Assembly: GCA_964350885.1 (NCBI GenBank) | Contig: CAYGKV010000002.1 | Location: 36,427-100,426, forward strand | Direction: 5' to 3' | DNA length: 64,000 bases | Source: an uncultured Candidatus Saccharibacteria bacterium | GTDB lineage: Bacteria > Patescibacteriota > Minisyncoccia > Phycocordibacterales > UBA2100 | Shown: one piece after another, positions 9,869-64,000 of the stretch | Position numbering within the stretch: position 1 is the stretch's first letter | How the letters are laid out: every line of letters begins with the position of its first letter | The notes under the pieces: model-generated | Database searches by the model: none | The model's input: only the letters and a program-made list of their open reading frames with translations | What the model was told of the DNA's origin: nothing | Program-made: the position numbers and the translations under genes

Positions 9869-10387
9869 TTAGAATGTTCCTGTGAGCGTGACCGAGAACC
9901 GCCCGCCTTGCGTACCGGCTAAATCTCCAATAGGAATTGACACGGTTTTGAAATACGAATTCGATTGCAGCGTCTGTCGGTACGCACTGACTCCTTCTCG
10001 AGTACTCGCTGCACCAACTATCATAATTTCTCCAGATACGTATCGAATGTGATCGACAAAGACGCCTTTCGGCCGAAGAGAAAGCGCTATCTCTACCGCC
10101 GAGGAAAGCGTCGAGGTCGCGGATAAGAACGGCGAGAGTATCGTCATAAGTGATTGTGCTCGCGCAATCTCAATACGCTCATTTTGTGCTTCAGGTCTTT
10201 TTTCTCCCGAAGACGAGGGGAGGGCTGATCCGGTGTTCCCTACATGGAGTGCAAGGTACATGGGGAGAAGAGCGAACGCCGCAAGCAGTGCAGATACGAT
10301 CGCAACGAGAGAACCAGCGAGAATAAACCGACCTACATACATCCTCCATAGCGCTTTTTGGGCCCCGCGTGGAAGTAAATTGCTCAT
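9869..10387 (-). CDS. pilN: Type IV pilus assembly protein PilN-like
   Basis: LLP N-terminus, a single TM, and a 4-nt overlap with pilM. Confidence 0.6.
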   Translation of the reverse strand: MSNLLPRGAQKALWRMYVGRFILAGSLVAIVSALLAAFALLPMYLALHVGNTGSALPSSSGEKRPEAQNERIEIARAQSLMTILSPFLSATSTLSSAVEIALSLRPKGVFVDHIRYVSGEIMIVGAASTREGVSAYRQTLQSNSYFKTVSIPIGDLAGTQGGRFSVTLTGTF

Positions 10388-11478: not shown

Positions 11479-11547
11479 TGTGTGCAAACTCTCCCCAATA
11501 CGAGAACTCGATGTAAACGCCTTCATTAGAGTCTAGTATATCAGCGA

Positions 11548-46425: not shown

Positions 46426-47520
46426 CTATCGATTCAATGGCATCACGAGATAGAGGAAGCTTGCATCTGAAACGCCACGGATAACAAGAGGCTTCCCAGC
46501 ACCAGCGAAACCAAGCACGACCGAGTCAGACTCGATTACCGGAAGACAATCGGCCAAGTAGCCAATATGAAAATTAATGTCGAGGTCTTCGCCCGAGAGC
46601 GCGGCGTCAATCGAATCCGACATCTCTCCAACGTCAGAACTGCGAGCTGTCGCGCTGAAAATCTTTCGTTTTGGGTACACGTGCAACCCAACATGTTGGT
46701 CGTTTCCAGAAAATACACGCGCCTTCCGTAGCATTTCTGCAAAATCATTTTTAAGTATCGTCGCCTCAGTAGTGGAGGCCTTTGGAATAATTTCTTTATA
46801 GTTTGGAAATGTGCCGTCGACAACCCGCGATACATACCGCACCACCCCGGAGGAAACGGACATCTGAGAATCATCCGCGGTAAGTGTTAGCGCCTCACTA
46901 TCCACCCTCTCAAGTACGTGCGCCAACTCGAGCGCGTGCTTCAAAGGGATAAGGAGTTCGGTTTTGCTTTTTCCTGCGCCTGTAACCATCTTTTCCGCGA
47001 GCCTAAAGGAATCTGTCGCGACACACACAATGTTGCCAGATGAAATGGAAATATACACACTTCCCAATTCCGGTCGGATCATTGAAGGAGATGCCGAATA
47101 CGAAACCGACTGTATTCCCCGCATAAGCTGATCTCGAGAGACAGTCATCCCCCCTCGATCCCGCTCTTCACCAAGCACAGGAAACTCTTCGTGAGGAACT
47201 GTCTTAATAAGCGTTTTCGTCCCCTTTGACTCAACCATTAAATTCCCCTCCTCTGTTTTAAACACAACCCTCTCTCCAGAAATAGATCTCAACGTCTGCG
47301 AAAGAACTACCACAGGAACAGCAACAATTCCTTTTTCCTCAATATCACAAGGGACGACCACTTCAATACCGGCCTCTAAGTTTGTTGCCCTTACAACAAA
47401 CTCACTACCAACATCAAAAAGAACACATGAGAGTACCGGCAACGACTCTTTTTTTCCCGTAATTCTTTCCGCTAACATCACCGCGTTTAGAATTTTTTCT
47501 TTTGTTGTTGTTATCTTCAT
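46426..47520 (-). CDS. dnaN: DNA polymerase III beta sliding clamp
   Basis: Three-domain clamp, about 364 aa. MKITTTKEKILNAV start. Located immediately downstream of dnaA. Confidence 0.9.
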   Translation of the reverse strand: MKITTTKEKILNAVMLAERITGKKESLPVLSCVLFDVGSEFVVRATNLEAGIEVVVPCDIEEKGIVAVPVVVLSQTLRSISGERVVFKTEEGNLMVESKGTKTLIKTVPHEEFPVLGEERDRGGMTVSRDQLMRGIQSVSYSASPSMIRPELGSVYISISSGNIVCVATDSFRLAEKMVTGAGKSKTELLIPLKHALELAHVLERVDSEALTLTADDSQMSVSSGVVRYVSRVVDGTFPNYKEIIPKASTTEATILKNDFAEMLRKARVFSGNDQHVGLHVYPKRKIFSATARSSDVGEMSDSIDAALSGEDLDINFHIGYLADCLPVIESDSVVLGFAGAGKPLVIRGVSDASFLYLVMPLNR

Positions 47521-49349: not shown

Positions 49350-49484
49350 ATGAAACGAACATGGCAGCCAAAGAAGCGCAAACGAGCAAAAACGCACGGC
49401 TTTCGTGCGCGTAGTATGACCAAGTCGGGTCGAAACGTTCTGGTACGCCGTCGCCGCAAGGGCCGCGCACGCATTTCGGTCTAG
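49350..49484 (+). CDS. rpmH: 50S ribosomal protein L34 (not in the ORF track, 44 aa)
   Basis: Hand translation gives [44 protein letters not shown], which is canonical L34. It lies immediately upstream of rnpA, as is universal. Confidence 0.85.
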
Positions 49485-49488
49485 AATA

Positions 49489-49866
49489 ATGCCATCAAAA
49501 CACCGGCTGTCGCACGCCGAACTCGTTCGCCTCTCGAAAATGAGAGTGGCGCGCACTCACGGGGCGCACTTTTCTCTCACCAGCGTGCTCTTCCCCGAGG
49601 GAGGGAGGCCTAAATTCGCATGTGTGGTGAGCAAGAAGATTGCGCTGCGCGCGGTTGATAGGAATCGCATACAACGTCGCTGTCGAGAGCTTGTCCGCAA
49701 TCAGATCAGCGCGCTTCATGAACCATATGCGCTTGTGTTGTATGCAAAGCGGGGTGCCTCAACCCTGTCATTTGAAGAGACTAGGAAGGATGTAGTGGCG
49801 CTGTTGGTGCGCTCTGGAGTGTTTGCATCAGGCGGCAGGCAGGATACAATCTCTGGAATACAATGA
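49489..49866 (+). CDS. rnpA: RNase P protein component
   Basis: About 125 aa basic protein with KFACVVSKKIALRAVDRNRIQRRCRE (the RNR motif). rpmH-rnpA-yidC synteny. Confidence 0.85.
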   Translation: MPSKHRLSHAELVRLSKMRVARTHGAHFSLTSVLFPEGGRPKFACVVSKKIALRAVDRNRIQRRCRELVRNQISALHEPYALVLYAKRGASTLSFEETRKDVVALLVRSGVFASGGRQDTISGIQ

Positions 49867-50597
49867 TCTCCCAGATTTTTCACGCAGTCGTGTATGACCC
49901 GTTGTACAACGGGCTTGTGTTTTTTGTTGAAATCATCCCGACGCACGATATGGGGCTTGCCGTGATCGCGGTTACGATTGTGGCCCGCTTCATCATCTAT
50001 CCCCTATCGCAACGGGCGATCCATGCGCAGATGGTGATGAAGAAGCTCGTCCCGGAGATCGAGAAACTCAAGGTGAAATTCAAAGATGATCGAGCAGAAC
50101 AGGGCCGGGCCATGTTTGCTCTGTATCGTGAACACGGCGTTCATCCCCTTGCGAGCATCGGCCTTCTCTTCGTTCAGCTACCGGTTTTGCTCGGGCTCTA
50201 CTGGGTTTTCTATAGCGGAGGGTTCCCGCAGGTTGATCCAGCTCTTCTCTACTCGTTTGTCCCTATGCCGACGGAAATCAACATGGAGTTTCTCGGTTTT
50301 GTGGACATGAGCGCAGATCGCAACATTGTCCTCGCACTCTTGGTGGCGCTCTCTCAACTTGTGTATTCTCGTCTCTCAATGGGGCCACGCCAGAAAGTGC
50401 TCGACGCGACGCCCGTCGAAGCATCGCTCTCAGGAGATTTCGCGAAGAGTTTTGATCTTCAGGCGCGGTATGTGTTTCCGATCCTCTTTGGCGGGATATC
50501 GTATTTTGTTGCTTCGGCGGTACCACTCTTTTGGCTTACGAGCAATCTTTTCATGATCGGCCAGGAGTTCGTCGCGGGGAGACGGTGGAAGGGGTAG
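49863..50597 (+). CDS. yidC: Membrane protein insertase YidC/Oxa1 (short form)
   Basis: 5-TM core. Overlaps the rnpA stop by 4 nt. Confidence 0.85.
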   Translation: MISQIFHAVVYDPLYNGLVFFVEIIPTHDMGLAVIAVTIVARFIIYPLSQRAIHAQMVMKKLVPEIEKLKVKFKDDRAEQGRAMFALYREHGVHPLASIGLLFVQLPVLLGLYWVFYSGGFPQVDPALLYSFVPMPTEINMEFLGFVDMSADRNIVLALLVALSQLVYSRLSMGPRQKVLDATPVEASLSGDFAKSFDLQARYVFPILFGGISYFVASAVPLFWLTSNLFMIGQEFVAGRRWKG

Positions 50598-50634: not shown

Positions 50635-51132
50635 GTGCCTCGCATGGAATCTGTCGAGACAATCATTAAAGAATTGCTTTCGAGACTCGATGTTCCGTTT
50701 ACCGGAGTTGAGCACAGCGCTATCGCGGGACAAGAAGTCTATTCCATACAAACAACCGCCGCGCAGGCTTTGATTGGCGTGCGGGGAGAGACGCTCCATG
50801 CACTCGACATGTTGGTGAAGAAGATATACGAAAAGAGCCTTCCTGCAGATGCGACCGATGCCGCGCTCTCCGCGCAGGTGGGAGAGCGTACGCCGATGTT
50901 TCTTATCGATGTCAACGATTATCGCACGAACCAAATAAAAGAATTGCAGACGAAAGCGCAGATGATGGCAGAGAGGGCGCGCTCCTTTCAGTACGACGTC
51001 GAGCTCTCCCCCATGAGCTCCTACGAACGCCTCATCGTCCACACGACATTGCAGGGTGCTCCAAACGTAAAGACGGTGTCGCAGGGTGAGGGGCGAAATC
51101 GCAGAGTGGTGATTAAGTATTCAACAGAATGA
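50635..51132 (+). CDS. Jag/KhpB (KH + R3H RNA-binding protein)
   Basis: Conserved rnpA-yidC-jag order. KH-like GVRGETLHALDMLVKK and a C-terminal R3H-like SYERLIVHTTL. Confidence 0.75.
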   Translation: MPRMESVETIIKELLSRLDVPFTGVEHSAIAGQEVYSIQTTAAQALIGVRGETLHALDMLVKKIYEKSLPADATDAALSAQVGERTPMFLIDVNDYRTNQIKELQTKAQMMAERARSFQYDVELSPMSSYERLIVHTTLQGAPNVKTVSQGEGRNRRVVIKYSTE

Positions 51133-51137
51133 AGTGT

Positions 51138-51980
51138 TTATCTTGCGATTAAGCTTGCCGCGTCCCCGCTCTCGTTTTCACAGTCTCCGATGCTCGAGTT
51201 AAAGCGTGGGTAACCATCTGGACAAGAGAAACCGGAACTCGGCGCTATGTAAAATGACCCGTTTGTTCTTTTGCAAAGCCCTCCCCCGTCGTATGTATCG
51301 TTTTGCGAACACGTTAACTGAGCAGCCCTGAAGACGCACGTTCCGTACGCTGAATCAGCGTACGTACTCATTTGAGCAGCAAGCGTATCACAGACGACTT
51401 TGCCGTCTGCCCCGCTGTAACATCTTTCTCCTCCTGGCGTTTGTGTGCACCACTTGTCGACGGAGGAATTTTGGTCAACTCCCTGCGCGTCAAAGCTCGC
51501 CGGAGGCGCTACTCCGCTATCCCCGTCCACTCCCGGGTGTGCCTGAGAGGTCGGTGAAGTCACTGAATTCTCTCCGATCACATCTAGTGCCTTCAGGCTC
51601 AAAATATCCGGATTGATCTGGTTCAAAATAATCCAAATCGAGAGGAGAAGGAGAAGTCCGAAGGTTACGTCTCCAAGAATTGCTTTTGCTTCACCTTTTT
51701 TACTCCACATGTCCGATTGGCCCATGTAGAGATATCCTGCGTATGCTATTCGCAACACAGCCGCAATTGCGCCGATAATTATCGCGAACCTAAAGAGGCT
51801 GTTGATAAAATCAGAGAAGCTGCCTGGTGTATTATTGTAGAGTTCCCCGAGAGGTCCTCCTTGTGTCCCCGCGAGGGGCACAAATGCGGTCTCAGCGGCA
51901 TACGCCACATATGCCATGGTCAGTAAACTGGCGAACGTGATAAGCGATATAATTCCGATTTGGAAAGAGGCTCGACGCAT
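51138..51980 (-). CDS. VirB2/TrbC-like pilin-fold protein (signal peptide + two hydrophobic helices) with a about 150-aa Cys-rich C-terminal extension
   Basis: Signal peptide MRRASFQIGIISLITFASLLTMAYVAYA. Helix 1 FRFAIIIGAIAAVLRIAYAGYLYM and helix 2 VTFGLLLLLSIWIILNQ. The C-terminal half has about 11 Cys. Last gene of the T4SS-like cluster. Confidence 0.5.
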   Translation of the reverse strand: MRRASFQIGIISLITFASLLTMAYVAYAAETAFVPLAGTQGGPLGELYNNTPGSFSDFINSLFRFAIIIGAIAAVLRIAYAGYLYMGQSDMWSKKGEAKAILGDVTFGLLLLLSIWIILNQINPDILSLKALDVIGENSVTSPTSQAHPGVDGDSGVAPPASFDAQGVDQNSSVDKWCTQTPGGERCYSGADGKVVCDTLAAQMSTYADSAYGTCVFRAAQLTCSQNDTYDGGGLCKRTNGSFYIAPSSGFSCPDGYPRFNSSIGDCENESGDAASLIAR

Positions 51981-51982
51981 AT

Positions 51983-53377
51983 TTATTCTTCAATTCGCAA
52001 GAGCCACAGTGATTTGTCAGCGGCGTTCATAAAGGCAAGGTGTGTTCCGGCTCTGCTAATCGTGAGGTTTTCCATATCTATCGAAGTGCCCGGTTCAGGC
52101 GCGTACAGTATTTCGGCCGTGCCAGCGTTCGTGTCTACTCGCCACAGCACATCTGATGAGTGTGTGGCGCCGCGGTACCAATCGTCGAGGAAGTATCGTG
52201 CCGTAATCCCCTGCGGTACACCGCAGTAAGCCACGGAACTTCTCCCAGGCAACCACACACACTTGTCCGCAATCGTTCGGACAGGTAAGCGGATCATGGT
52301 ACTGCTTGCTTGTGTGTGCGCGAATAAGGTGAGTGCGCCGCCGCTCGATTGTCCGTACAAAAATGCGCCGCCTTCTCTTCCAAGAACGGTGAGTCCGGGG
52401 ATTGAGCGAATGAGTGGGGAGAGCACTCCACTGCTCGTCATTTCGTACGCATAACCGGGCGTGTCGTCGCTTGCCGCTTGCGTGAGGATAATGCGTCCAT
52501 CCGAGAGCCACTGCGAGCGCCAATTTGGTAGAACAGAAGTAAAGATACGCTTTGGTTCGTCGCCATTCCACTTAGAAAGGATCCCGACTGTCCCCAGTCC
52601 TTCGCGAACGAGATAAAACAGGGCGCCTGTTTTTGGGTTTGAAGTGATGTGCATGATGTTTTGCGCGAGGGAAACGTTGGATAGCGTAGCTGACTCGGTT
52701 GCGGTCGAGCCCTCGCCCGTGCTCGTCGAAATTGAACCGACGATCGTTACGATGTCCCCGCTATCGTTCAGTGAGCGTTGCACGATACGCCCGTTCGTGA
52801 AGAATGCCTCCTGGATTTTCGGCAAGAGCGTATTTGTGACTCGGAGCGTCGTCGCCGTCTCAGGATCGGTCTCAAATACATATCCACTTGAGCGCTCGAC
52901 ATACTGCAATCGTTCGCCCTTTCTTGTTTGCACAAAAGACAAGCCAGCCACGGGCTTGTTGTGAATTTGCGAGAATTGTGGCGGGCGCTTAATCGCAGGA
53001 ACGGGAGACTCTCCTGTCGTAACCGATAGCGTAGTCTCTTCGTCGGTCGGCCCTTCTGAGATCCCCGCGGTGAATCCATCGAGAGATGCGGGGTCAGTTA
53101 CTCCCGTCCCCTCTCCTCCGATTATTGAATTCAAGAGTCGGGAGAAGATCCCTGCCTCTGATTTTGGAGCAAAATCTGTTTGCGGAGCCGTACCCTTAAG
53201 AGCCGACACGCCGGTCACACCCGAGCCCCCTTGAGGTGCCCGGTAGCCACGTGCGGTCGCTTCTTGCAAGACTTCCCGTGATTGTGTTTTAAGAAAGAAG
53301 TACCAGCCAGAAAACGCGCCGAGAATGAGGATGATCGTGGCCGCAAGAGCATAGGTGATGATGGTTTGTGTGCGCAT
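51983..53377 (-). CDS. Membrane-anchored extracytoplasmic protein, hypothetical (repeat-rich, possibly a beta-propeller)
   Basis: Single N-terminal TM, then 430 aa rich in Thr/Ser/Gly. No family assigned. The start overlaps the upstream gene by 1 nt. Confidence 0.5.
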   Translation of the reverse strand: MRTQTIITYALAATIILILGAFSGWYFFLKTQSREVLQEATARGYRAPQGGSGVTGVSALKGTAPQTDFAPKSEAGIFSRLLNSIIGGEGTGVTDPASLDGFTAGISEGPTDEETTLSVTTGESPVPAIKRPPQFSQIHNKPVAGLSFVQTRKGERLQYVERSSGYVFETDPETATTLRVTNTLLPKIQEAFFTNGRIVQRSLNDSGDIVTIVGSISTSTGEGSTATESATLSNVSLAQNIMHITSNPKTGALFYLVREGLGTVGILSKWNGDEPKRIFTSVLPNWRSQWLSDGRIILTQAASDDTPGYAYEMTSSGVLSPLIRSIPGLTVLGREGGAFLYGQSSGGALTLFAHTQASSTMIRLPVRTIADKCVWLPGRSSVAYCGVPQGITARYFLDDWYRGATHSSDVLWRVDTNAGTAEILYAPEPGTSIDMENLTISRAGTHLAFMNAADKSLWLLRIEE

Positions 53378-53379
53378 AC

Positions 53380-54432
53380 CTATTGCTCGAAGCTGCCAAA
53401 CTGATCAATAGCCGAGGTGTCTTCCGAGAAGGTGACTCCCCACGATCCCCTTGAGTCCAGATAGTAATTTGTGCTGTGCGCTAAGGTTAGGTTGAGGAGT
53501 GCGATACCACGTGAATTTGCCGCATTGATCGTTATCTTATCTTGACGAGCGTTTGGTACTAGGCGACCGTTGATCCGCCATTCATAGGAGAGCGCAGGGT
53601 CTTCGGCGTGTGTCGCCTGCGCAAAATACGGCACTGCTACGAAGGTCATTTCTGAGCCAGGGACAAACGTGTTTGCGCCGAGCGCCTTGTAGTACATAAC
53701 GCCAAATAGTGGGTGGTCTTGGTACAGGGTGAGGAGGGGCTTCGCAGGAGAGAGAGAAAAGGACGCTTCGTTTACTAATACTCCATCAAGTGAATGCGCC
53801 TCGACGGTGATTTGGTCGGTACCGAAGAGGTTTTGCACAGGAATGATGGCGCTTGACTTGCCTCGCCCCGAGGCGCTGCCAAGAACCTCGCCGTTCTTTT
53901 TCCAGATGAAATTGATCTCGGAATCCGTGAGGTTCGATCCTCCTCTCCTGAAAAGTGGAGCTGCCTGCAGGCGTAGACTGGTCCCTGCTGAGGCGCGTGG
54001 ACGGCCGCGGTAGAAGGGCGGGATGTATGCACTGGAGTCTGATAGAAGATCGATATGGGTGGGGGCAATCGTAGCGCGTGCGATGGCGCTCAGCTCATCT
54101 GGCGCAGCTACGGAGATTTCGACCTCAGTCTCTGTCCCCAGAGTTCCAGCGACAATATTTGCAGTTGTAACACCCTTTCCCCTCGCGATTATTTCACCAT
54201 TCGCGCGCCACACGAGTTCGGATTGTTCGAGATCGAGAATCGAGCTCTGTGCTTCCAGGAGAACCGTGTCTTGTGGCGCTGGATATCGCGGGGTGTAGGT
54301 GATCAGCACAGAATTTTCTATTCCCATGAGCCCCACCTGTGCGTACGTTGGTGCGACGAATATGCCACACATCCCGAGCACTCCCACGAAGAGAGCAACG
54401 TTTCTGCGCGTGCTACCACTCGACGTGTTCAT
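53380..54432 (-). CDS. Secreted hypothetical protein
   Basis: Signal peptide ...GIFVAPTYAQV. The ATGA overlap with the VirB4 gene suggests translational coupling. Confidence 0.5.
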   Translation of the reverse strand: MNTSSGSTRRNVALFVGVLGMCGIFVAPTYAQVGLMGIENSVLITYTPRYPAPQDTVLLEAQSSILDLEQSELVWRANGEIIARGKGVTTANIVAGTLGTETEVEISVAAPDELSAIARATIAPTHIDLLSDSSAYIPPFYRGRPRASAGTSLRLQAAPLFRRGGSNLTDSEINFIWKKNGEVLGSASGRGKSSAIIPVQNLFGTDQITVEAHSLDGVLVNEASFSLSPAKPLLTLYQDHPLFGVMYYKALGANTFVPGSEMTFVAVPYFAQATHAEDPALSYEWRINGRLVPNARQDKITINAANSRGIALLNLTLAHSTNYYLDSRGSWGVTFSEDTSAIDQFGSFEQ

Positions 54433-56363
54433 TGTGCTGTTGGAGCAGCGGGAGGCTGCGGGTTGAAATTTACCGGAGCGGATTGAACCCGAGTAGCTTC
54501 GGCCGTGGTGTTTTCGGCGTTTATCCTAGCGACGTCCTGCCCCGCGTCATTTGCCTCGGCGAGTTCTTGTTTTGCTTTTTTGATGGCGAGGATTTGCGAC
54601 GGATCGGAGGTGATGATCTGATCCTCGGTGTAGGAGGCAATTACTTTGATCGCTACGTGTTTCAATCCTGCAAAGAAGATCCCCTCCCCCACGTCCGATT
54701 CTAGGAGTAGATACTTTTCCTCATCCGACAGTTTGAATGTTTGTTGGACGAGGTCTACTGATGTCGGTGATTGTCGTAGGAGAAGCTGGATAGAGGAGTT
54801 CGTAATCATTGCGGTACCGTACGGAGATGTTAGGAAGTCGTTTACGTCTTGCGTGATCGTCGAGAGTCCCAGGTAGTATTTACGTCCACGCTTTGCAATT
54901 CCGAAGAGAAACGATGCCGTGTCTTGCGATTTCATCATCCACCACGCCTCGTCGATGATGAGGAGACGCTTGCGGAGCTCTTTACGCACGGCATTCCAAA
55001 TGTGGTGTGTAATGATGTACATTGCAACGGGCTTCAAGTCGTCCTCCATGTCGCGTACGGAGAAAACGACAAGTTTTTTGTTCATATCGACGTTGGTCGG
55101 ACGATTCATAAATCCAGACCACGTGCCCTTGGTGTACTTTGAGAGCCGTGCGACCAGTGAGTCAGAGCCTTCCATACCAGAGAGCACCAGTTCGAAATCC
55201 GAGAGGAGCGGTGGCTCAATTGAGGCGAAATTCGCATCTGCCGTAATGTCTTTCAAAGCGTACGTTTCAGTGATGGCGCGGTCGATCACCGCGTCTTCCT
55301 CCGGCGTGAGGCCTCCGAGCATGATGCGGAAGAGGCCGACCAGCGTGATGATGTTGCTGCGCAAAATATCGGATGGATTTTCATCCTCGCGAGGGATTGG
55401 GAGATCAAAAGGATTGATGTGGTGTTCGGAAGAGAGGGAGATGTTGAAATATCGTCCGCCGACGGTGGTTGCCAGGTATTCATACTCACGCTCAGGGTCG
55501 ATCACAATCACTTCGGTATCAAACATGAGGCTGCGTAATATCTCGAGCTTTGTCGTGTAAGATTTACCGGCGCCTGATTTTGCAAACGTTACGGAGTTGT
55601 AATTTTCGAGTGAAAAACGATCAAACAATATGAGTGAAGAGTTGTGTCTGTTGATGCCGTAAAGAATTCCTCGATCGGACGTGAGGTCGAATGAGATAAA
55701 GGGGAAAATGGAAGACAGCGGCGCAGAATTGAGTTTGGTGTGGACATTGATCTCATCCATCGCAAGCGGAATCACCGAGCGGAACCCCTGCTCCTGTTGG
55801 AAGAGCGCAGGTCGGATGTAGACGAGGCGTGATTCGAGGATCGAACGTACCTCGGTTTCCACTTTGTCGATCTCCTCTCGCGTGCTTCCGTAGATGGTGA
55901 GGTACAGGCCCACCTCGAATATACGCTCCTGCGCCTGTTGGAGCGAATTGCGTAGCTGCTCAAGGTCGGTGTAGGCGGTGTCGAGCATAGGATCGCGCAC
56001 CATTCCCTTCCCTTCTCGCGAACTAATCTGACTCTGCACCTCAGCGACTTTCTTCTGGAATTTCCTCAGCATTTCATTCGTGTCCATGGGGTGAATGAAA
56101 ATAGAAATATCGATCACCTTGTCCATGTTGATGATCGGAGCAAACCAGCCTGTGGTAAGGAAGCGCGGATAGGAAATGACAAAAAATGTGCGCGCGATCT
56201 TCTCTCCAAGGTCAAGCTCGCGCGAGCTGATCCGAAGCGCGTGCGGAGCTATCACATCCTGTAAATCCAAGATGCCCGATTTATAAATTTCTTCTGGAAG
56301 GACGGGTAATACATTCGGGCTTTCCGTCGGTTTCCTCCGTTTGAATAAGTCTATGAGTGCCAT
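54429..56363 (-). CDS. VirB4/TrbE/TraC-family type IV secretion ATPase (C-terminal about 640 aa)
   Basis: Walker A VTFAKSGAGKSYTTK and Walker B LLIIDEAWWMMKSQD (DEAW is typical of VirB4). Confidence 0.85.
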   Translation of the reverse strand: MALIDLFKRRKPTESPNVLPVLPEEIYKSGILDLQDVIAPHALRISSRELDLGEKIARTFFVISYPRFLTTGWFAPIINMDKVIDISIFIHPMDTNEMLRKFQKKVAEVQSQISSREGKGMVRDPMLDTAYTDLEQLRNSLQQAQERIFEVGLYLTIYGSTREEIDKVETEVRSILESRLVYIRPALFQQEQGFRSVIPLAMDEINVHTKLNSAPLSSIFPFISFDLTSDRGILYGINRHNSSLILFDRFSLENYNSVTFAKSGAGKSYTTKLEILRSLMFDTEVIVIDPEREYEYLATTVGGRYFNISLSSEHHINPFDLPIPREDENPSDILRSNIITLVGLFRIMLGGLTPEEDAVIDRAITETYALKDITADANFASIEPPLLSDFELVLSGMEGSDSLVARLSKYTKGTWSGFMNRPTNVDMNKKLVVFSVRDMEDDLKPVAMYIITHHIWNAVRKELRKRLLIIDEAWWMMKSQDTASFLFGIAKRGRKYYLGLSTITQDVNDFLTSPYGTAMITNSSIQLLLRQSPTSVDLVQQTFKLSDEEKYLLLESDVGEGIFFAGLKHVAIKVIASYTEDQIITSDPSQILAIKKAKQELAEANDAGQDVARINAENTTAEATRVQSAPVNFNPQPPAAPTAQ

Positions 56364-56369
56364 ACGTAT

Positions 56370-57029
56370 TTATTTCTCGATCGTTATCGGCTTTCCCTCT
56401 TCTCCAGGGTTGAACATCTTGTAGAGGAGCTCAATAGCTTCTTCCGTCCCCAGCTGCACGGTGCGCACCCCGGTGCGCACGAGACCCTGCTGCACGATTG
56501 AGATGCGTTGTTCGAGCTGGGAGACTTGCTCTTCGAACGTTCGGTTGGATTCTTCAGAGCTTTTCGTTTTCTTTCCAAAGGGGAGGAGCGAGCTGATCCC
56601 CTTTCCTGTGATAGCGATAGATGGAGAGTATGGGACGCTGATAAAGAAATTTTTTGTCATGATATTCGCCGCTTCAGTGAAGCTCTTGATGAATTGGATG
56701 TATTCGCGGATCTGTATTCGCATGAGGTCGTCAAGCTGCGCTTTGTATGCGACCTCGAGCGTTTCGATGTATGGGCGAATATCGAGCATGCGCGATTGTA
56801 CGAATATTTGCACTGAAAAATCGAGCGAGTTGAGGAAGTTTTGGAACTGTATGATAAAGGCGGTTTGTTCATCCTCTGATTTCAGTGCGAAGTTGAGTGA
56901 AGATGCAAGGAGGATCGCTCGCAGGCTACCGTCTTTGAGGACGATGACACCGTCGCGGACCTCGGAAACAGGCAGGAAATCCTGTGTAGATTTGGCACTT
57001 GCGCGCGGGTTTTTGTTTTGTGTAGGCAT
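56370..57029 (-). CDS. VirB4 N-terminal-domain-like protein encoded as a separate ORF 6 nt upstream of the ATPase
   Basis: FLPVSEVRDGVIVLKDGSLRAILLASSLNFALKSEDEQ resembles the start of VirB4/TraC N-domains. A TAA stop at 56370-56372 is followed by an ATG at 56361-56363 in a different frame. Confidence 0.5.
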   Translation of the reverse strand: MPTQNKNPRASAKSTQDFLPVSEVRDGVIVLKDGSLRAILLASSLNFALKSEDEQTAFIIQFQNFLNSLDFSVQIFVQSRMLDIRPYIETLEVAYKAQLDDLMRIQIREYIQFIKSFTEAANIMTKNFFISVPYSPSIAITGKGISSLLPFGKKTKSSEESNRTFEEQVSQLEQRISIVQQGLVRTGVRTVQLGTEEAIELLYKMFNPGEEGKPITIEK

Positions 57030-57038
57030 GGCGCATTA

Positions 57039-57554
57039 TTAAAGCTCTTGTGCTCGGCCCGTGGCTTCGCGGGCGGTGCGTACCGGGGCTGCGATATTCT
57101 CATGGCGTCGCAAAGTATCTAGCTCTCCCTCGCTCACCCCCTGTGCAACACGATCCTTGATGTCCAAGCTCCATGAAAGCTCATGAAGTTTGCTGTCGGA
57201 GAGTTTCGGGGTGTACAGCCGCTCTCCTTCTCTCGGAGCAAGCTTCCCGATGATTGGCGGAATCACATTCTTCTTGTGGACGTTGTTCCAGAGGTACAAT
57301 TTACTGCGTAAAAAAAAGAAGAATGCATTTTCGAGTCCGATAATGAATGGTCGACCGTTGAATTGGAAAAATGCGAGACTCGCGACAAGTCCGCCGGTAA
57401 TGGCAATCAGGGGTCCGGCTACATAGATCGGTAGTATGCGCCACATAATATAGGAGGCACCGGCGCCACCGCCAATGTAGATGAATTGTTTGAAGGTCAA
57501 AGGACCGAAAATCTTGTCTTCAACCTCAATAAATTGCGGCACTTGAAACTGCAT
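57039..57554 (-). CDS. PrgI/VirB3-like small 2-TM protein
   Basis: MQFQVPQFIEVEDKIFGPLTFKQFIYIGGGAGASYIMWRILPIYVAGPLIAITGGLVASLAFF matches the PrgI-family pattern. It sits immediately upstream of VirB4, as in Gram-positive-type T4SS. Confidence 0.5.
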   Translation of the reverse strand: MQFQVPQFIEVEDKIFGPLTFKQFIYIGGGAGASYIMWRILPIYVAGPLIAITGGLVASLAFFQFNGRPFIIGLENAFFFFLRSKLYLWNNVHKKNVIPPIIGKLAPREGERLYTPKLSDSKLHELSWSLDIKDRVAQGVSEGELDTLRRHENIAAPVRTAREATGRAQEL

Positions 57555-57596
57555 GGTTCCATTATATCAGTGCGCTGAGCGGTACTTTGGCGTTGT

Positions 57597-58169
57597 TCAC
57601 GCTGGCGGCTCTCGATACGGATCGTCTTCGACGGATGGTCGAACTGACGAAGGCTCTCCCGCTTTGTACGCGGCAGAAATCGGGGCGCGCTCTACGCGTT
57701 GGGTTGGTGGCGCGGAGGGCGGGGTCGCGGGGAGAGTGGGGGCGCTTGGTGTGTTGGAAGGAATCGCTGCCTCCGAAAGAATCTGCGCCCGCGCCGCCTC
57801 TACTCCGCTCACTTCCGCCGCTTTTGCATCGGGATGTTCGAGTAGCCGCTCTAGTTCTCCCCTGATCGGCTCGAATACAATCTTTGAGATGTCTGCGGCC
57901 AACGAGGCCGACATCTCAGGAGAAATATCGAGATCGGCTCGCAAATTTTCTGCGAGCTTGTCGGTTTCTTGGAAGCCCAGCAGCGTAAGCAAAACTTCAT
58001 TTTCAAGTAATTGCCATTGATCCACATGCAGTTTATTTGTACTTGCCAGTTCACGCATCTGTTTTTCGACATCGGCGGACGTGATTGCATCTTGCACAAC
58101 TTTCGGCAGCTCTTTAAAGCGCGCGCGGATTTTTTCGTCAAGATCATTTTGCGAATTTTTTGTTTCCAT
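57597..58169 (-). CDS. Hypothetical acidic cytoplasmic protein with a Pro/Ala-rich tail
   Basis: ORF within the cluster. No TM and no family assigned. Confidence 0.45.
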   Translation of the reverse strand: METKNSQNDLDEKIRARFKELPKVVQDAITSADVEKQMRELASTNKLHVDQWQLLENEVLLTLLGFQETDKLAENLRADLDISPEMSASLAADISKIVFEPIRGELERLLEHPDAKAAEVSGVEAARAQILSEAAIPSNTPSAPTLPATPPSAPPTQRVERAPISAAYKAGEPSSVRPSVEDDPYREPPA

Positions 58170-58172
58170 AAT

Positions 58173-60542
58173 TTAGTGTGTATCTGGAGCTGCTGCCGGG
58201 GCGGCAGAGGAAGCTGTCTCTTTTTGCATCTCTTCGAATACTTTGCGGAGTTTCGCGGTGCTCACCTTCCCCTTATATTTTTCTGCCGTCTCGGCAGCGA
58301 CTGCAGCATTAGCTCCCGTGAACTTCCCCACCAATCGAGTAAGCACGTCTCCCTGTCTTTCCCCGATCTTCCCAGCGATATCTTCTGCACTCTGAGCGAG
58401 AGAAAGCGTAGCTTCCGTTTGAGCCTCTTTTATCGCGTTCGCGGTTTCTTTGTCGTGGTCCTCGAGTCCCTTCAGGGCTTCTACGACCGGCTTCTCAATG
58501 ACATTGATGCGGCCTTGTATTCTCTCCACGATATCCTTCGCATTATTAATGCGGTTCTTTTCCACGGCCATCTCAGCTGCGTGTTGTGCTTGTGTAATTG
58601 TTCCGGCGTTGAGTTGTTGGTCGAGCGCAACCTTGTTGCGTGAGGATGTATCCTCCGCAGTTCGCAAGTCCTGCTGCGCGGCAGTCATTTTTCGTGGGAG
58701 TTCTTCCAACTCTTTTGTTTGATTGGCAATTGCCTCGGCAGAATTCTTCGTTGCCTCAAGCTGCTCTCGTTGCGCCCTTCGAGCCTCCCGGGTCGTCTCT
58801 TCTGCAACTTTGCGTGCGCCCTCGTTGTCTTTCTCCGACGGGGCGATTTTTGCAGCGGATTTTTCGGCAGCCTCGGCTCGCGCCTTGATGGTTCCCGCAA
58901 AGCTCTTCGTGTCTTTCGATGAGGCGCCCGCAGCAAAGCCCTTAATTCCCACAGCGCCCAATGCAGCCTTCGCTCCCGCAGTATCCATGAGGTTGAATTT
59001 CTTATCAGCCAATGAACCTAGGCGCCCGGCAGTTGCTAGCTTGCTTGCAGCAAGTTTCTTCTGTAGGGCAGCCTCTGCCCACGCCTGGCTCGCAATGCCG
59101 AAGTTCCCCGCTCGCTCGTGTCTTCGAGCCGCTATCTCTGCCGTCGCCGCCGCATCACGCGCCACGCCGGCCTCTTTCCCGTACCTTTTACCGGCAAAAT
59201 ATGCTGGTGCGCCAATACCCAGGCGCCCCAGCGCCCCTGCAAGGCGCGATCCGAGTGTGAGAGGGAGCACCGCTGCCATAGCCGCCATGCTAAATCCAGA
59301 AATCTTACTTGCGAAAGTGCTTGAAAGTTTGAATGCTATGAACAGCATGCCGAGTATAAGGATGAAATTAAAGAGCGCGGCGATGTTGGCTCCGGGTTCT
59401 GTGCTCGTCATGAGCGCGCCCAATGTTCCACATTTTGCAACCTCCCCGGCTCCATTACAGATCGCCGAGCTGAGTGCTTGCGATATATTCAATGTCACCC
59501 ACAGTAGCAACATCAGCACCGGAGCAAGCGCGGCGCTACCAATGAGTGACTTCCACCACGCATCCCACCCATAGCTACTCCCCGACCATTTGGGGACGAG
59601 GTAGCTCGCGAATGCGATTGACGCGGTAATCATGAGAAAAATGAGAATCAAAGCACGTGAGACCAAAAGAAACGTGCCATAAAAGAATATAATCGCAGTT
59701 GCAATAAGGAATACAAATGAGATAAGGCCATAAATAAGACCGACCGACGCATCGTCATTGTTTTCTTGGATTTCACGGAGCGTATAGTACGAGTCGTAGA
59801 TGCCGGTTACTCCGAGGAATTGCATGAAGCTCCCTGCGATACCGTTCTTTTCTTTTTGTGTCACTTGGATATCTGCGCTGTTTGAAATGTCGCCCCCACC
59901 AATCTCAAGTGCCCCCCCCTCATCCGTACTTTGTAGTGCTGCCACGTAGAATTGGTTTGCCGTAAAATTTGATGCGTCCACAATCATTTTGGTAAAAAGG
60001 AGGCTGAAGTTGATGAGAACCGCGATAATAAGCACGTTGGCGATCAGTTTCTTCTGCCCGTATTCTTTGAGCCCGATAATGATAGAAAGTGCGATGAAGG
60101 TGAATATGCCAATGATCAAGATGTTGGCGATATCGCGGAATGCCGTCCACGCGATGTTCACGCCCCCCTCGACGTGCTTGAAAATGCCTGCTTGGAAATT
60201 GACCGTTGTAGCTTTGAGCGCGAATTCAAATAAAAGACCGGCCCAGGTGAGTAGCAGTATTCCGAAGTACATGAAAAGCGATCCAATTCCTGCGAAGATT
60301 CCTCGCATTAGACACGTGAAGGGGTTGAGCAAATTTTCCAAGTCACCTGCGCATTCGACGGGCCCACCAGCTTCACGTATAGAACCAACAACCTGTCCGG
60401 CACCATCAATACAGTTAAGGCTTCTATCTTCTACCTCAGAGCCCGGGGGACACTCGGCGGCCTCGGCTTGTCGCGGAAGTACGAATACTCCCGATGTCAC
60501 TAGAAGTATTGACAGGCAAAAAAAAGTGGCCGTTTTTCTCAT
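58173..60542 (-). CDS. VirB6/TrbL-like polytopic membrane protein with a about 300-aa Ala/Lys/Glu coiled-coil C-terminal tail (start at MRKTATFF)
   Basis: Signal peptide, then a Cys-containing periplasmic loop, then at least 8 TM helices, then the coiled-coil tail (AAATAEIAARRHERAG...KLAASKLATAG...ARAEAAEKSAAK...). Confidence 0.55.
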   Translation of the reverse strand: MRKTATFFCLSILLVTSGVFVLPRQAEAAECPPGSEVEDRSLNCIDGAGQVVGSIREAGGPVECAGDLENLLNPFTCLMRGIFAGIGSLFMYFGILLLTWAGLLFEFALKATTVNFQAGIFKHVEGGVNIAWTAFRDIANILIIGIFTFIALSIIIGLKEYGQKKLIANVLIIAVLINFSLLFTKMIVDASNFTANQFYVAALQSTDEGGALEIGGGDISNSADIQVTQKEKNGIAGSFMQFLGVTGIYDSYYTLREIQENNDDASVGLIYGLISFVFLIATAIIFFYGTFLLVSRALILIFLMITASIAFASYLVPKWSGSSYGWDAWWKSLIGSAALAPVLMLLLWVTLNISQALSSAICNGAGEVAKCGTLGALMTSTEPGANIAALFNFILILGMLFIAFKLSSTFASKISGFSMAAMAAVLPLTLGSRLAGALGRLGIGAPAYFAGKRYGKEAGVARDAAATAEIAARRHERAGNFGIASQAWAEAALQKKLAASKLATAGRLGSLADKKFNLMDTAGAKAALGAVGIKGFAAGASSKDTKSFAGTIKARAEAAEKSAAKIAPSEKDNEGARKVAEETTREARRAQREQLEATKNSAEAIANQTKELEELPRKMTAAQQDLRTAEDTSSRNKVALDQQLNAGTITQAQHAAEMAVEKNRINNAKDIVERIQGRINVIEKPVVEALKGLEDHDKETANAIKEAQTEATLSLAQSAEDIAGKIGERQGDVLTRLVGKFTGANAAVAAETAEKYKGKVSTAKLRKVFEEMQKETASSAAPAAAPDTH

Positions 60543-60544
60543 AT

Positions 60545-62206
60545 TTATCTTCTCCACGTGTCTCGCCACGCTTGGATTACTGCAGGATTGTTGACGTTGC
60601 ACCAGCCGATTGCGGGGCTAGGATCATCTGCCCAAGACTTCACCGTGTCGGTAACGAGTGTGTTCATCGCGGCTTGGACGCTGTTGAGTTGTCGCACGAT
60701 GCCATTGGGGCCGTCGATGTCTGTCTGCGTATGGATCTGGCGTTGCGCTACGAGCGCGTCGAGTGCCAAGAGGGCGTTGTGCTGCGCATCAGGAGAAGAG
60801 GTGTTGGAGACGCCGCGGATGAGAGTGTCGATCCGTGCGAGTGCCGCCTGAGAAGTCACGGTGTTGGTAGCAGCGATTGCTACAAGTGGAGAAATTTGTG
60901 TCGTTATGACCGATTGTGCGTACCCGGCGGTTGAGGTCGCTACTCTGTACGTGACGGTCTGAGGGTTTAGTGGGTCGCCTTCCTTGCCAGTGCACTCGTT
61001 GAGCGCATTGGGCGCGCTCACGCTGCAGACTCTCGAGATGATGAGATCCCAACATTGGTTTTCGGCACCTCTTAGCTGAGCGCCTGCTTGCGTGAGTGCG
61101 GCAACGATCGCGTTTGCGGTCTGGAGGTATGCGACTTCTACTTGCCGCGCCGTCGCGAGGACCTGAAGCGCTAAGTTGGTCGCCGCGTTGCGGAGCCCTT
61201 GTGCAGAGCCCGACACAACCCGATCAATGTATGAGGGCTGGCCGCCCGTGCTTTTTGAGATCCCCGCGAGACCACCGGGGCCTCCGATAATTTGTGTCTC
61301 GAGCCCAGCGAAGAGGGCGCCGATCATCTGACCAATGTCGTTTGCTTGTTCAAGCTGGCGGACGGAGCTGTCGAGGATGTTTTGGAAGGATTCTTGCACG
61401 GTCACTGAAGGTGTGAGGACTCTCCGTGCGAGAGGGTCTGAAGCGTTGTCAGTAAGTGCGTAGTAGCCTCGCCCCCAATTCCATTCGTCGCGTTGAGCGG
61501 CCATAGCAGCTCCTGCTCGAGCGTCCCGCATTTCAATAGCACGCATCTTCGCCCAGAAAGGATTGCATGCCGGATTTGTTCCTGCATAGAAGGCTTCCCA
61601 GTTGAAGTTTTCTGTGGGATTCTTCTGGTAAATAGAGATGTCCCCTTGGAATGGGCAGGTGAGCGCTGATGTGGGATCTCGAGTTTCAGTCTGATAACTC
61701 ACTCCCACGGCACGTATCACGTCACTCTTGAATGCGGGATTAAGAGCTTGTAATTCTGGACCTCGCAAGAATGTTGCTACGGTAGGGTCGCTCACGTACG
61801 TGAGCATCTCCTGGGTCTGGTTTTCTACGAATTGTTTGTTTCCCCCGCGACCCGTCTGAATAGCGGTATCGGCTTTTCTCGTGATCGCGGCCAAGGCCGC
61901 TTCGCGCTGGCGGACGACGATGTTGCGCAGCACGCATTCTTTGTAGACGAGAACGCCAGTATTCAATTCGACCGCATAATCCGCGACAGGCACGTATGGT
62001 CCTCCTATGGCAACTGTCGACCCGACACTTGCGCCACCGGTTCTGTTGCAGTCGAAAATACCCTGCACGTTGAAGCCCGGGGTCGTGCTCGCCAACGTGT
62101 TGGCCAGATCAGCCGGTGTGGGGGACGTAGTTTGGGCGTATGCAGCTATCGGTAGCATCCATAGGAATACGAATACGAGAGTCGTTATGTGGTTTCGTAT
62201 ACTCAT
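60545..62206 (-). CDS. Secreted hypothetical protein (553 aa)
   Basis: Signal peptide ...PIAAYAQT. Ala/Thr/Gln-rich. No family assigned (a VirB5- or VirB8-like role is possible but unsupported). Confidence 0.5.
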   Translation of the reverse strand: MSIRNHITTLVFVFLWMLPIAAYAQTTSPTPADLANTLASTTPGFNVQGIFDCNRTGGASVGSTVAIGGPYVPVADYAVELNTGVLVYKECVLRNIVVRQREAALAAITRKADTAIQTGRGGNKQFVENQTQEMLTYVSDPTVATFLRGPELQALNPAFKSDVIRAVGVSYQTETRDPTSALTCPFQGDISIYQKNPTENFNWEAFYAGTNPACNPFWAKMRAIEMRDARAGAAMAAQRDEWNWGRGYYALTDNASDPLARRVLTPSVTVQESFQNILDSSVRQLEQANDIGQMIGALFAGLETQIIGGPGGLAGISKSTGGQPSYIDRVVSGSAQGLRNAATNLALQVLATARQVEVAYLQTANAIVAALTQAGAQLRGAENQCWDLIISRVCSVSAPNALNECTGKEGDPLNPQTVTYRVATSTAGYAQSVITTQISPLVAIAATNTVTSQAALARIDTLIRGVSNTSSPDAQHNALLALDALVAQRQIHTQTDIDGPNGIVRQLNSVQAAMNTLVTDTVKSWADDPSPAIGWCNVNNPAVIQAWRDTWRR

Positions 62207-62973
62207 GAATTTTTCTGTTTGTAGTAGCTCGCAAACGCCTTGAACGAGGAGTACATCTCGGCCTCGGCTTCGTTGTAGGTGCGCAAAAGGGCGACCGATG
62301 CGTACGGATCGGCGGCGTTTAGAGCGAGCGCATCGAGCGTGGAAGCAAATTTTTCCATTGCGTTTAGGATCGCCACATGTCGAGTTACCGCGTCTGCGGG
62401 AGTTACGACCTGTGCCGTTGCCTTTGCGGCATCGCGGTAGTACTGGGCGACCTCCTTGAGACGCTTCAAATATTTTGTGTCCTGTGTAGCAATGTAGTAG
62501 GCAAAGATCTCGAATTCAGGTTGTGTGTTGACCCGCATCGGCGCGAGCGATGCGCGGAGATCGTCGCTGTATTTTTGTTGGCGCGCTACCGACGTATCGG
62601 AATCGGTCTTTATATCCGACGAAGTGTAGGAGTGGTATGGAACCGCTGGACTCAGAGCTTCCGCCATAATGGTGGCCACGCCGGCCCCCACATCCTCGGT
62701 ATACATGCCCTGTTCTTGAAGCGCTGAGTATCTCGACACGACCTCTTCAAAGATCGCGGATCCAAGCGTGGATTCTTCCGGTGGCGCTATCTCAATCGGC
62801 GCAGGGTTCGTGCCTCTTTCAGGGCTGCTCGCAATGTATGAAGTCATGATGTTTTTTTGTTGCACCATTTCCTTTATTTGCCAGCCGGACGCTGCGAGGA
62901 GTACAAAAATAGAGAGCGCGGCAGTTATCCCAATATTCGAAAAACCGCTAACGTACGAGCGTTTGTTTTCCAC
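62203..62973 (-). CDS. Membrane-anchored hypothetical protein
   Basis: N-terminal TM ITAALSIFVLLAASGW. A C-terminal Ala-rich helical domain has loose similarity to the 63170 gene product. Confidence 0.5.
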   Translation of the reverse strand: MENKRSYVSGFSNIGITAALSIFVLLAASGWQIKEMVQQKNIMTSYIASSPERGTNPAPIEIAPPEESTLGSAIFEEVVSRYSALQEQGMYTEDVGAGVATIMAEALSPAVPYHSYTSSDIKTDSDTSVARQQKYSDDLRASLAPMRVNTQPEFEIFAYYIATQDTKYLKRLKEVAQYYRDAAKATAQVVTPADAVTRHVAILNAMEKFASTLDALALNAADPYASVALLRTYNEAEAEMYSSFKAFASYYKQKNS

Positions 62974-63169
62974 ATGGATTAGTATAGCGCACGGGAACCA
63001 AGTGGTAGGTTCTACGAACCAGGTTTTAGGGGAAATCCTCGCAGAAATTTACGAGCCAAGTCTCAGGCGGTCTTGCTTAGAGATCGCCCACAAATAACAT
63101 GAGCGTCATTTGTGGGCGACCACGTAGTGCCGCACCCGTATTCTGTAGACTTTATTTATCGATGAGGCC

Positions 63170-63955
63170 TTAGAGCGCTCCTTGTGTAAACGTAAAGACG
63201 CTCCCCGCGTCATTCGGGTCAAACACAATCCCGTAGGCACTCAAGATGGTTGCAAGAGAGACGTAATTTTTCACAAGGGTGTCCGCAGAGGCGTTGTATG
63301 CCTCGATGGCGCTCAGAAATTCCGTATCATTCGTCGCCTCGGGCACGAGAGCGAGCTTTTTTCCGGTCTCAATGTAGTTTTTTGCGAGTGTTGTGTGAGC
63401 GGCAGCGACTCCACCGGGGACATCCGTGATGTTGTTTACGAGATTATTTCCCACGTCCTCCAGAGAACGAGCGAGGTAGCGGACGGCCGCCGCCTTGGCC
63501 GGGTCTCCCCTATCCTCGGCTTGATCCTTGAGGATTACCGCCGCAGTCGGATTTTGCTGCTCGAAAGATTGGATGTACGAACCAGCGTAGTTTCCATAAT
63601 CGTACACCGCTTGCTGAGTCGCTGACAGCGTTTTCTTAGGCGCGGTAGTGCTAATGAGGTTTGTTGGGATAAGTGAGTAGGTATCTTCTACTATAGCGCC
63701 GGTTGGGGGGTTCTGGGGAGGCTGTGTACTTTGGGTCAACGTCGAGATAAATTCATTGAGATCAAATGAGTCTATCGCTCCGGGGCTCGGCTGGAGAACG
63801 GCGGGAGGAATGTAGGTGTATGGGGCGTTATCTTGCACGCGCCCTATGTGCCGCTTCGGTGTCCCTGTGTTTTGAGTCGGGGTATGTGAAGTGGGATCCA
63901 AGACGCCCAAGTTGTTCCCGCCCCATGTGGTTGCTGTGTTAGAAACGGGCGCCAT
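63170..63955 (-). CDS. Hypothetical protein, first gene of the cluster visible in the window (start ATG at 63953-63955, or the GTG at 63970 used by the track)
   Basis: ORF only. Its C-terminal region (LSAIEAYNASADTLVKNYVSLATIL) resembles a similar region in the 62203 product. Confidence 0.4.
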   Translation of the reverse strand: MAPVSNTATTWGGNNLGVLDPTSHTPTQNTGTPKRHIGRVQDNAPYTYIPPAVLQPSPGAIDSFDLNEFISTLTQSTQPPQNPPTGAIVEDTYSLIPTNLISTTAPKKTLSATQQAVYDYGNYAGSYIQSFEQQNPTAAVILKDQAEDRGDPAKAAAVRYLARSLEDVGNNLVNNITDVPGGVAAAHTTLAKNYIETGKKLALVPEATNDTEFLSAIEAYNASADTLVKNYVSLATILSAYGIVFDPNDAGSVFTFTQGAL

Positions 63956-64000
63956 TGATTTTTTCTGCACGACCCATGCACCAGCGAGTATTGTGAGTGC

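Follow-up and report, generated by a model that had tools for sequence, protein, structure and literature searches.

What kind of secretion machinery is encoded beside the dnaA region of an uncultured Patescibacteria bacterium, and does it belong to a mobile element or to the resident chromosome? The window analyzed here—a 64,000-nt stretch of contig CAYGKV010000002.1—contains a 12.8-kb cluster of 11 co-directional minus-strand open reading frames (ORFs), which extends from beyond position 64000 down to 51138 and whose genes we name g1 to g11 in transcription order (Table 1). An earlier reading of the letters alone (the sequence-only reading) had given the same number and orientation, which the ORF list confirms, and had taken the cluster for a chromosomal type IV secretion system (T4SS). 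The window edge cuts g1; in the public contig the whole gene encodes 294 aa (L001 8920-9804).

The motor and its small membrane partner are recognizable by standard models. The g8 product matches the NCBIfam model conju_CD1110 with 358.9 bits against a cut-off of 325 (E = 5.5e-107), has weaker NCBIfam matches to VirB4_CagE, TraC, and others, and matches P-loop_TraG, AAA_10, and DUF87 in Pfam. It spans the middle and C-terminal motor domain of VirB4, with intact Walker A (AKSGAGKS) and Walker B (LLIIDE) motifs, and aligns to VirB4_CagE from approximately position 180-270 on, complementing g7, which matches positions 2-179 of that model (E 3.8e-7). Because g7 also matches TrsD/TraD NF041427 (E 2.8e-5) and VirB4_plasma (E 4e-10), both in NCBIfam, we assign it as a TrsD-like gene, i.e., the VirB4 N-terminal domain carried as a gene of its own. 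The two genes lie in one frame, parted by a TAA and two codons (6 nt). Stop-codon recoding, read-through, or a frameshift at this junction was considered and rejected, given a TAA stop and a conserved split of a kind already known as TrsD. The g7/g8 pair is a real split gene: in 79 of 81 related loci, g7 forms an ORF of its own. These loci come from a VirB4 search of species-representative genomes, which returned at least 576 relatives; our comparisons use the best 80. The g6 product matches PF12666 (E = 3.1e-9; 37.7 bits against a Pfam cut-off of 27), and the PrgI gene is present in 76 related loci. Both the VirB4 ATPase and the PrgI/VirB3-like protein with two transmembrane (TM) segments named in the sequence-only reading were thus recovered above cut-off.

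At the other end of the cluster, family matches identify g11 as a VirB2-type T4SS pilin, in keeping with the earlier VirB2/TrbC-like call. Although g11 by itself stays under the PF18895 cut-off (E = 1.6e-4; 22.1 bits against 26.6), 30 of 35 orthologues match this family, the best at E 2e-10, and 7 of the 35 match TrbC/VirB2; many homologues also bear a precomputed PF18895 annotation. In the alignment, a signal peptide precedes two conserved hydrophobic helices that form the core (aa ~55-125). The C-terminal extension of ~155 aa (51141-51608) is Cys-rich, lineage-specific, and not conserved. Only the first 80-150 residues align to relatives, almost no homologue shares the C-terminal half, and most homologues, at 155-200 aa, cover only 40-58% of g11. 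One orthologue (L063:13769-14800) has an NlpC/P60 (E 2.5e-5) / CHAP (E 0.0066) cell-wall hydrolase domain in place of the extension.

Can a VirB6-like channel component be recognized in the same cluster? In the g4 product, a signal peptide, a small region of strands with Cys, and ~6-7 TM helices (aa 74-440) are followed by a tail of ~350 aa that forms an Ala/Lys/Glu-rich coiled coil. It matches no hidden Markov model (HMM) in Pfam or NCBIfam, none of its 120 best homologues has a Pfam domain, and its profile searched against PDB sequences gave only coiled-coil artefacts from the tail. Residues 1-441 were modeled with AlphaFold2 from 95 sequences (predicted local distance difference test [pLDDT] 84.5; predicted template modeling score [pTM] 0.76), and the top PDB matches of the model are DotA and TrwI/VirB6. 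In a second fold search, Foldseek ranked TrwI first among 350,542 chains, with a probability of 0.99 and an E value of only 0.035. An hhalign comparison of a VirB6 profile, built from 10 plasmid sequences, with the g4 family was marginal (E 0.038, probability 1.4%) and brought the invariant Trp residues of the two families together in corresponding helix regions. Because the two independent fold searches agree, we accept the predicted structure of g4 as VirB6-like at the level of the fold but do not count it as a proven member of the family in Pfam (PF04610). For the 809-aa polytopic VirB6/TrbL-like protein of the sequence-only reading, then, the resemblance survives by fold, while the HMM match and the length do not. 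The most likely true start is an ATG 2 nt past the g3 stop, giving 789 aa—the length also found in public gene calls—and the 809-aa ORF begins at an upstream GTG inside g3. HMMs support PrgI and the pilin, and for VirB6 there are two positive fold searches in place of an HMM match. The VirB6-like protein of this lineage is recognizable by structure only, which goes beyond the published description.

Table 1. Genes of the secretion cluster, flanking genes, and -10-like hexamers in the 64,000-nt window
Feature	Position	Strand	Description
g1	63170..64000, continues past window end	-	294 aa at full length; membrane-anchored: N-terminal TM, Pro-rich linker, C-terminal domain
g2	62203..62973	-	256 aa, GTG start; membrane-anchored
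g3	60545..62206	-	553 aa, secreted; signal peptide
g4	58173..60542	-	789 aa, 'extended VirB6-like'
g5	57597..58169	-	190 aa, presumably cytoplasmic
g6	57039..57554	-	171 aa, PrgI/VirB3-like small membrane protein; ATG start
g7	56370..57029	-	219 aa, TrsD-like; assigned as VirB4 N-terminal domain
g8	54429..56363	-	644 aa, VirB4-family ATPase
g9	53380..54432	-	350 aa, exported or anchored
g10	51983..53377	-	464 aa, N-terminal TM anchor
g11	51138..51980	-	280 aa, assigned as VirB2-type pilin
TATACT (-10-like hexamer)	62981..62986	-	7 nt before the g2 GTG, within the 196-nt g1-g2 gap
TATAAT (-10 hexamer)	57561..57566	-	6 nt before the prgI (g6) ATG, within the 42-nt g5-g6 gap
jag	50635-51132	+	converges with the cluster
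yidC	49863-50597		same side as jag, upstream of jag
rnpA	49489-49866		upstream of jag
rpmH	49350-49484		upstream of jag
dnaA	47735-49474 (listed ORF, 579 aa)	-	start likely near 49084 (MTNRELW...)
dnaN	46426-47520		strand opposite to jag, yidC, rnpA, and rpmH

Do genes for mobility accompany these components? As the sequence-only reading had stated, no relaxase, coupling protein (T4CP; VirD4), VirB11, or integrase is found in 51138-64000. Pfam found none of them in the window ORFs that were tested (for the most part the larger ones), nor do the records of the genes in the 10 kb past 64000 list any, a stretch into which the earlier reading could not see. The Pfam scan beyond the cluster covered 20 other window ORFs of at least 240 aa and turned up only housekeeping, two-component, and type IV pilus (PilB-like, PilM) genes and one for a Fic protein. 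The sole T2SSE-family ATPase among them (37179-38876, plus strand; MshEN + T2SSE, E 8.6e-113) is PilB-like and not VirB11, because it carries an MshEN domain and is 565 aa long.

The arrangement of the cluster is shared across many genomes. Nearly all of the best 80 are labeled Parcubacteria/Paceibacteria, Kaiserbacteria, Nomurabacteria, or unclassified Patescibacteria, and the closest carry the labels Kaiserbacteria or Nomurabacteria. The order uvrD-ksgA-g1..g11-jag-yidC-rnpA-dnaA-dnaN is found across most of the 80 Paceibacteria loci, and the orientation of the cluster relative to jag and dnaA is identical in all related loci containing those genes. After profile iteration, each cluster gene is found in 55-79 of ~81 loci, the sole rearrangement being a pilin gene placed before g10 in more distant relatives. 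This conserved gene order points to vertical inheritance and away from an integrated conjugative element (ICE). VirB4 (g8) is 72-92% identical across the best 80 species genomes (best aligned segment). In the closer relatives (loci L007-L031), VirB4 is 87-92% and TrsD 75-86% identical, compared with 54-76% for DnaN, 48-68% for YidC, and 54-69% for KsgA, the KsgA range setting aside one 46% value, which comes from a partial match of 67 residues where a contig ends. For the cluster's exported proteins, identity among the same relatives is only 30-50%. An extremely conserved motor combined with fast-diverging exported parts would be the signature of a host interface, and the contrast points to the proteins likeliest to set host specificity.

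These results bear directly on the possibility that the cluster is an ICE or the remnant of one—a mating-pair-formation module whose mobility genes lie elsewhere or have decayed. The VirB4 does fall in a monoderm conjugative element family (CD1110/CTn2-type), and pGO1 and pCF10-type plasmids are known to carry TrsD and PrgI. However, housekeeping genes flank the cluster on both sides (ksgA and uvrD on one, and jag, yidC, rnpA, rpmH, and dnaA on the other), most of the 80 genomes keep its position and order, with a divergence that follows that of the neighbors, and neither the tested ORFs of the 64-kb window nor the 10-kb record beyond them include an integrase, relaxase, or T4CP. Base composition is likewise unremarkable, with a GC fraction of 0.527 in the cluster and 0.521 in the rest of the window and no compositional anomaly, and a VirB4 more conserved than DnaN is unexpected for a decaying element. 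We therefore regard an ICE or its remnant as highly improbable.

How does the locus relate to systems already described? Quiñonero-Coronel et al. (2025, Microb Genom 11:001409; PMC12102498) reported a Patescibacteria-specific VirB4 clade that is related to MPF_FATA and accompanied by TrsD, PrgI/VirB3, VirB6, and VirB2-like pilins, usually without a nearby relaxase or T4CP; its typical site in Paceibacteria and Microgenomatia is beside dnaA, dnaN, rnpA, rpmH, and ksgA. In that study, TrsD is the most abundant T4SS component in Patescibacteria, in an arrangement known from pGO1, VirB1-like hits include LysM/M23 proteins, and VirB1 homologues are associated with virB4 in Paceibacteria. Our locus agrees with this Paceibacteria arrangement in having VirB4 with an adjacent TrsD, together with PrgI/VirB3, VirB6-like, and VirB2-like pilin genes; in its chromosomal site near the same five genes, with neither relaxase nor T4CP nearby; and in a LysM-Peptidase_M23 gene ~4 kb upstream (L001 4296-5342). 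Its placement in the Patescibacteria clade is by VirB4 identity (74-92%) to the 80 Paceibacteria genomes, not by a tree. A LysM + Peptidase_M23 protein, encoded on the strand opposite to the cluster, recurs upstream of uvrD in at least 7 related loci. The publication leaves the other neighbors unannotated, whereas here g1/g2, g3, g5, g9, and g10 form a conserved set—a difference, but not one in kind.

The Saccharibacteria system is the closest one with functional data. Wang et al. (2023, Cell; PMC10633639) found by transposon sequencing (Tn-seq) that the T4SS of Saccharibacteria is essential for epibiotic growth and remarked on its pilins and its missing coupling and relaxase proteins; a 2025 review (PMC12857230) lists the system as a T4SS of a new type, which may form a pilus on a monoderm cell. 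Like our cluster, the T4SS of Southlakia epibionticum ML1 (SEML1_0006-0019), the only member with functional data, is of monoderm type, includes pilin genes, and is chromosomal, near the start of the genome numbering, with no recognizable relaxase or coupling protein in the cluster. Unlike our cluster, Saccharibacteria have an array of some six divergent pilin genes and, downstream of virB4, also peptidase and lysozyme genes; this locus has one long-tailed pilin and, in that position, the putative Ig-repeat and propeller proteins, a comparison by position and not by orthology. The component set, the lack of a relaxase, and the dnaA-side site all match PMC12102498, and both that study and PMC10633639 arrive at the interpretation given here. 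Because these two papers already describe the system, the finding is not new.

More distant conjugation systems resemble the locus in part. With MPF_FATA (pGO1 TrsC/D/E, pCF10 PrgH/I/J, CTn2 CD1110) it shares a CD1110-family VirB4, PrgI, the TrsD/TrsE-like VirB4 split seen in pGO1, and the lack of outer-membrane core components. In contrast to that group, it has no T4CP (PcfC/TrsK), relaxase, oriT context, or PrgB-type adhesin; it is also chromosomal and vertically inherited, and it includes a VirB2-type pilin, which the Gram-positive systems lack. Its likeness to MPF_T (R388 Trw, Agrobacterium VirB) consists of a VirB2/TrbC-like pilin, a g4 membrane domain that by its model is nearest to TrwI/VirB6 and DotA, and a helical secreted protein, g3, encoded directly upstream of the VirB6-like gene, which is the place of virB5 in MPF_T operons. 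It differs from MPF_T in lacking VirB7, VirB9, VirB10, VirB11, and VirD4, in a g3 with no detectable sequence relation to VirB5, and in a g4 more than twice the length of TrwI, with a coiled-coil tail.

What, then, does the cluster encode? Very probably it is a chromosomal, relaxase-less T4SS typical of Paceibacteria, derived from monoderm conjugation machinery and working in exchange with a host. The parts, the synteny, and the lack of mobility genes nearby all support what the sequence-only reading had proposed, a chromosomal, non-mobilizing T4SS of a small-genome, episymbiont-like organism belonging to the candidate phyla radiation (CPR). Our working model is of a membrane translocon that would consist of VirB4/TrsD, PrgI, and the VirB6-like protein and would assemble a VirB2-type pilus; g3, g9, g10, and g1/g2 would form, or be attached to, the portion spanning the wall and making contact with the host. 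Such a machine would move macromolecules between episymbiont and host, and not its own DNA by conjugation. The model is inferred, and the substrate and the direction of transport form no part of it.

True conjugation would require a T4CP and an unrecognized relaxase elsewhere in the chromosome, with DNA moved between Paceibacteria cells. Patescibacteria T4CP homologues are indeed frequent and usually far from virB4 (PMC12102498), and only part of the 129-kb contig was inspected. However, relaxases occur in only ~100 Patescibacteria genomes and rarely near virB4, and the distant T4CP homologue of S. epibionticum is non-essential, in contrast to the essential T4SS genes (PMC12102498). That tiny genomes keep the motor almost universally, and in extremely conserved form, also fits core physiology better than gene transfer, and we consider conjugation very unlikely. 

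A second alternative is a dedicated DNA-uptake machine like Helicobacter ComB or Ced of Crenarchaeota, importing host or environmental DNA as a source of nucleotides or genes; it is a sub-case of the relaxase-less host-exchange T4SS and does not contradict it. A relaxase and a T4CP are lacking nearby, as in ComB, g8 weakly resembles the CedB ATPase domain (E 1.4e-8), CPR bacteria are without nucleotide synthesis, and the authors of PMC12102498 favor import of DNA or other macromolecules. The CedB match, however, covers residues 440-510 only and is far below the VirB4 and conjugation matches, no ComB- or Ced-specific component was found, and transformation of Saccharibacteria needs comEC, which is dispensable for growth, whereas the T4SS is essential (PMC10633639, PMC12857230). 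Specialization for DNA uptake thus appears rather improbable to us, if less so than conjugation.

Several points weigh against a relaxase-less T4SS for host exchange. The inspected part of the genome is only about 74 kb, which leaves room for a coupling protein or relaxase elsewhere, and T4CP homologues distant from virB4 are common in Patescibacteria (PMC12102498). Neither a VirB8-like nor a VirB1-like component was identified within the cluster, and the VirB6 homology of g4 comes from a predicted structure and a marginal hhalign score, being missed by the Pfam and NCBIfam HMMs. The Ig-like and beta-propeller calls described below stand on E values of 0.003-0.012. Pilus formation has not been demonstrated for any Patescibacteria T4SS, and this organism itself is known from sequence and models alone.

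The genes that accompany the core machinery—g1/g2, g3, g5, g9, and g10—are a conserved, ordered set, which goes beyond the published description. The sequence-only reading had counted six secreted or anchored proteins of no recognizable family. Two of them do not fit that account, the 219-aa g7 being assigned as the VirB4 N-terminal domain and the 190-aa g5 having neither signal peptide nor TM segment, and both are therefore likely cytoplasmic. A direct BLASTP comparison of g1 with g2 finds nothing, and iterated profiles seeded from either converge on the same 73 ORFs. By this evidence g1 and g2 are paralogues, visible by iterated profiles only; closer relatives carry two copies and more distant ones a single copy. 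Each has one N-terminal TM segment, and neither matches Pfam, NCBIfam, or PDB sequences, profiles included. 

With a signal peptide and 8 Cys, the g3 product is modeled confidently (pLDDT 82.4) as an elongated bundle made up of helices throughout; an additional FN3 domain in some homologues is in keeping with a place outside the cell. A VirB5 identity for g3 was tried and rejected as unsupported: a 2-sequence profile paired the invariant VPVxD of g3 with IPVFD (E 0.014), and with a 9-sequence profile the motif proved not to be conserved in VirB5 and only the signal peptides aligned. Profiles of g3 and g5 gave no informative match to PDB sequences or Pfam. Present in 69 of ~81 related loci, g5 consists of a conserved N-terminal region of ~110 aa followed by a Pro-rich linker, and its otherwise poorly conserved tail ends in D-P-Y-R-E (57597-57620); among 37 aligned orthologues the D, Y, and E are invariant and the P and R at least 90% conserved. 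This tail could be a docking peptide.

Both g9 and g10 share the N-terminal-anchor topology of g1 and g2. The g9 product, present in 79 loci, has three internal repeats; its profile matches the Hoc Ig-like domains in PDB (E 0.003), and 5-8 of 38 orthologues weakly match BiPBP_C, Ig_3, or PKD. Tentatively, the repeats are probably immunoglobulin (Ig)-like beta-sandwich domains. In g10, present in 72 loci, the TM anchor is followed by a low-complexity linker; the profile matches TolB in PDB (E 0.012), and a PD40 repeat is found in 4 of 37 orthologues, so that the C-terminal part is, again tentatively, a probable TolB-like beta-propeller. Profile searches of PDB sequences with g1/g2, g9, and g10 gave no VirB8-like match.

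Do these proteins have a common purpose? It is conceivable, though we would not call it probable, that the accessory proteins and the variable C-terminal domain of the pilin make up a Paceibacteria-specific host-contact module on a monoderm T4SS core. The pilus would then display a fast-evolving cargo or adhesin domain (compare the NlpC/P60/CHAP hydrolase of the relative), and the Ig-repeat and beta-propeller proteins would form a wall-spanning or tip structure. If so, the module would be the means by which an episymbiont breaches a specific host envelope and takes up macromolecules. The T4SS is among the few machines that Patescibacteria keep almost universally and is essential in the one species tested. 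This locus represents no new kind of system; it gives Paceibacteria a clean and complete, well-preserved example whose set of 11 genes is defined, and it provides a structure-based VirB6 assignment where HMMs fail. Its accessory proteins are a reasonable start for structural work.

Is the cluster transcribed as one unit? The sequence-only reading had described gaps of 0-4 nt and a single operon. The successive intergenic gaps from g1 to g11 are in fact 196, -4, 2, 3, 42, 9, 6, -4, 2, and 2 nt, the two overlaps being those of the g3 start with the g2 stop and of the g9 start with the g8 (virB4) stop. The two -10-like hexamers in the larger gaps (Table 1) suggest internal promoters rather than one single operon. 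In 38 of 68 related loci a TATA[ACT]T hexamer ends 4-10 nt ahead of the prgI start, compared with 2 of 74 at the virB4 junction used as a control; this count covers the prgI site, and the g2 hexamer was read in the window sequence only. A Shine-Dalgarno motif is visible before none of the cluster genes. The prgI hexamer is a candidate internal promoter of a leaderless prgI-trsD-virB4-g9-g10-pilin transcript, and we infer a second candidate in the g2 hexamer, as promoter of a leaderless g2-g5 transcript. A generic promoter and terminator scan gave fewer matches than shuffled controls and was uninformative.

The surroundings of the cluster are those of a chromosomal origin region. The sequence-only reading had placed its start 6 nt after jag, the last gene of an rpmH-rnpA-yidC-jag block; the block and the adjacency to jag are as described, but 5 nt lie between jag and position 51138, and it is the end of the cluster that meets jag, in convergent orientation. 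The cumulative GC skew has its minimum at 46-48 kb and changes sign near dnaA, at ~47-49 kb, which fits an origin beside dnaA. If the origin is near dnaA, the entire 12.8-kb cluster reads toward it, head-on to replication. In the 579-aa dnaA ORF, the ~130 codons before the likely start run antisense over rpmH; the long DnaA extension is an artefact of ORF listing. Rfam and tRNA scans found no RNA genes within or beside the cluster. Past the window, the source contig (ENA ERZ27247820) continues with ksgA, uvrD, the LysM-Peptidase_M23 gene, and purA, and further on with a DUF202 gene, a comM-like gene, and a dksA/traR-type zinc-finger gene.

Elsewhere in the window, Pfam gives no match at E <= 0.001 for two large minus-strand ORFs (15331-17139, 602 aa, and 32376-33614, 412 aa). 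The gene at 40634-41749, on the minus strand beside ruvB, codes for a Fic/DOC family protein (Fic_N + Fic). The PilM gene (10384-11526, minus strand; E 4.3e-35) and the PilB-like gene at 37179-38876 both lie separate from the T4SS cluster.

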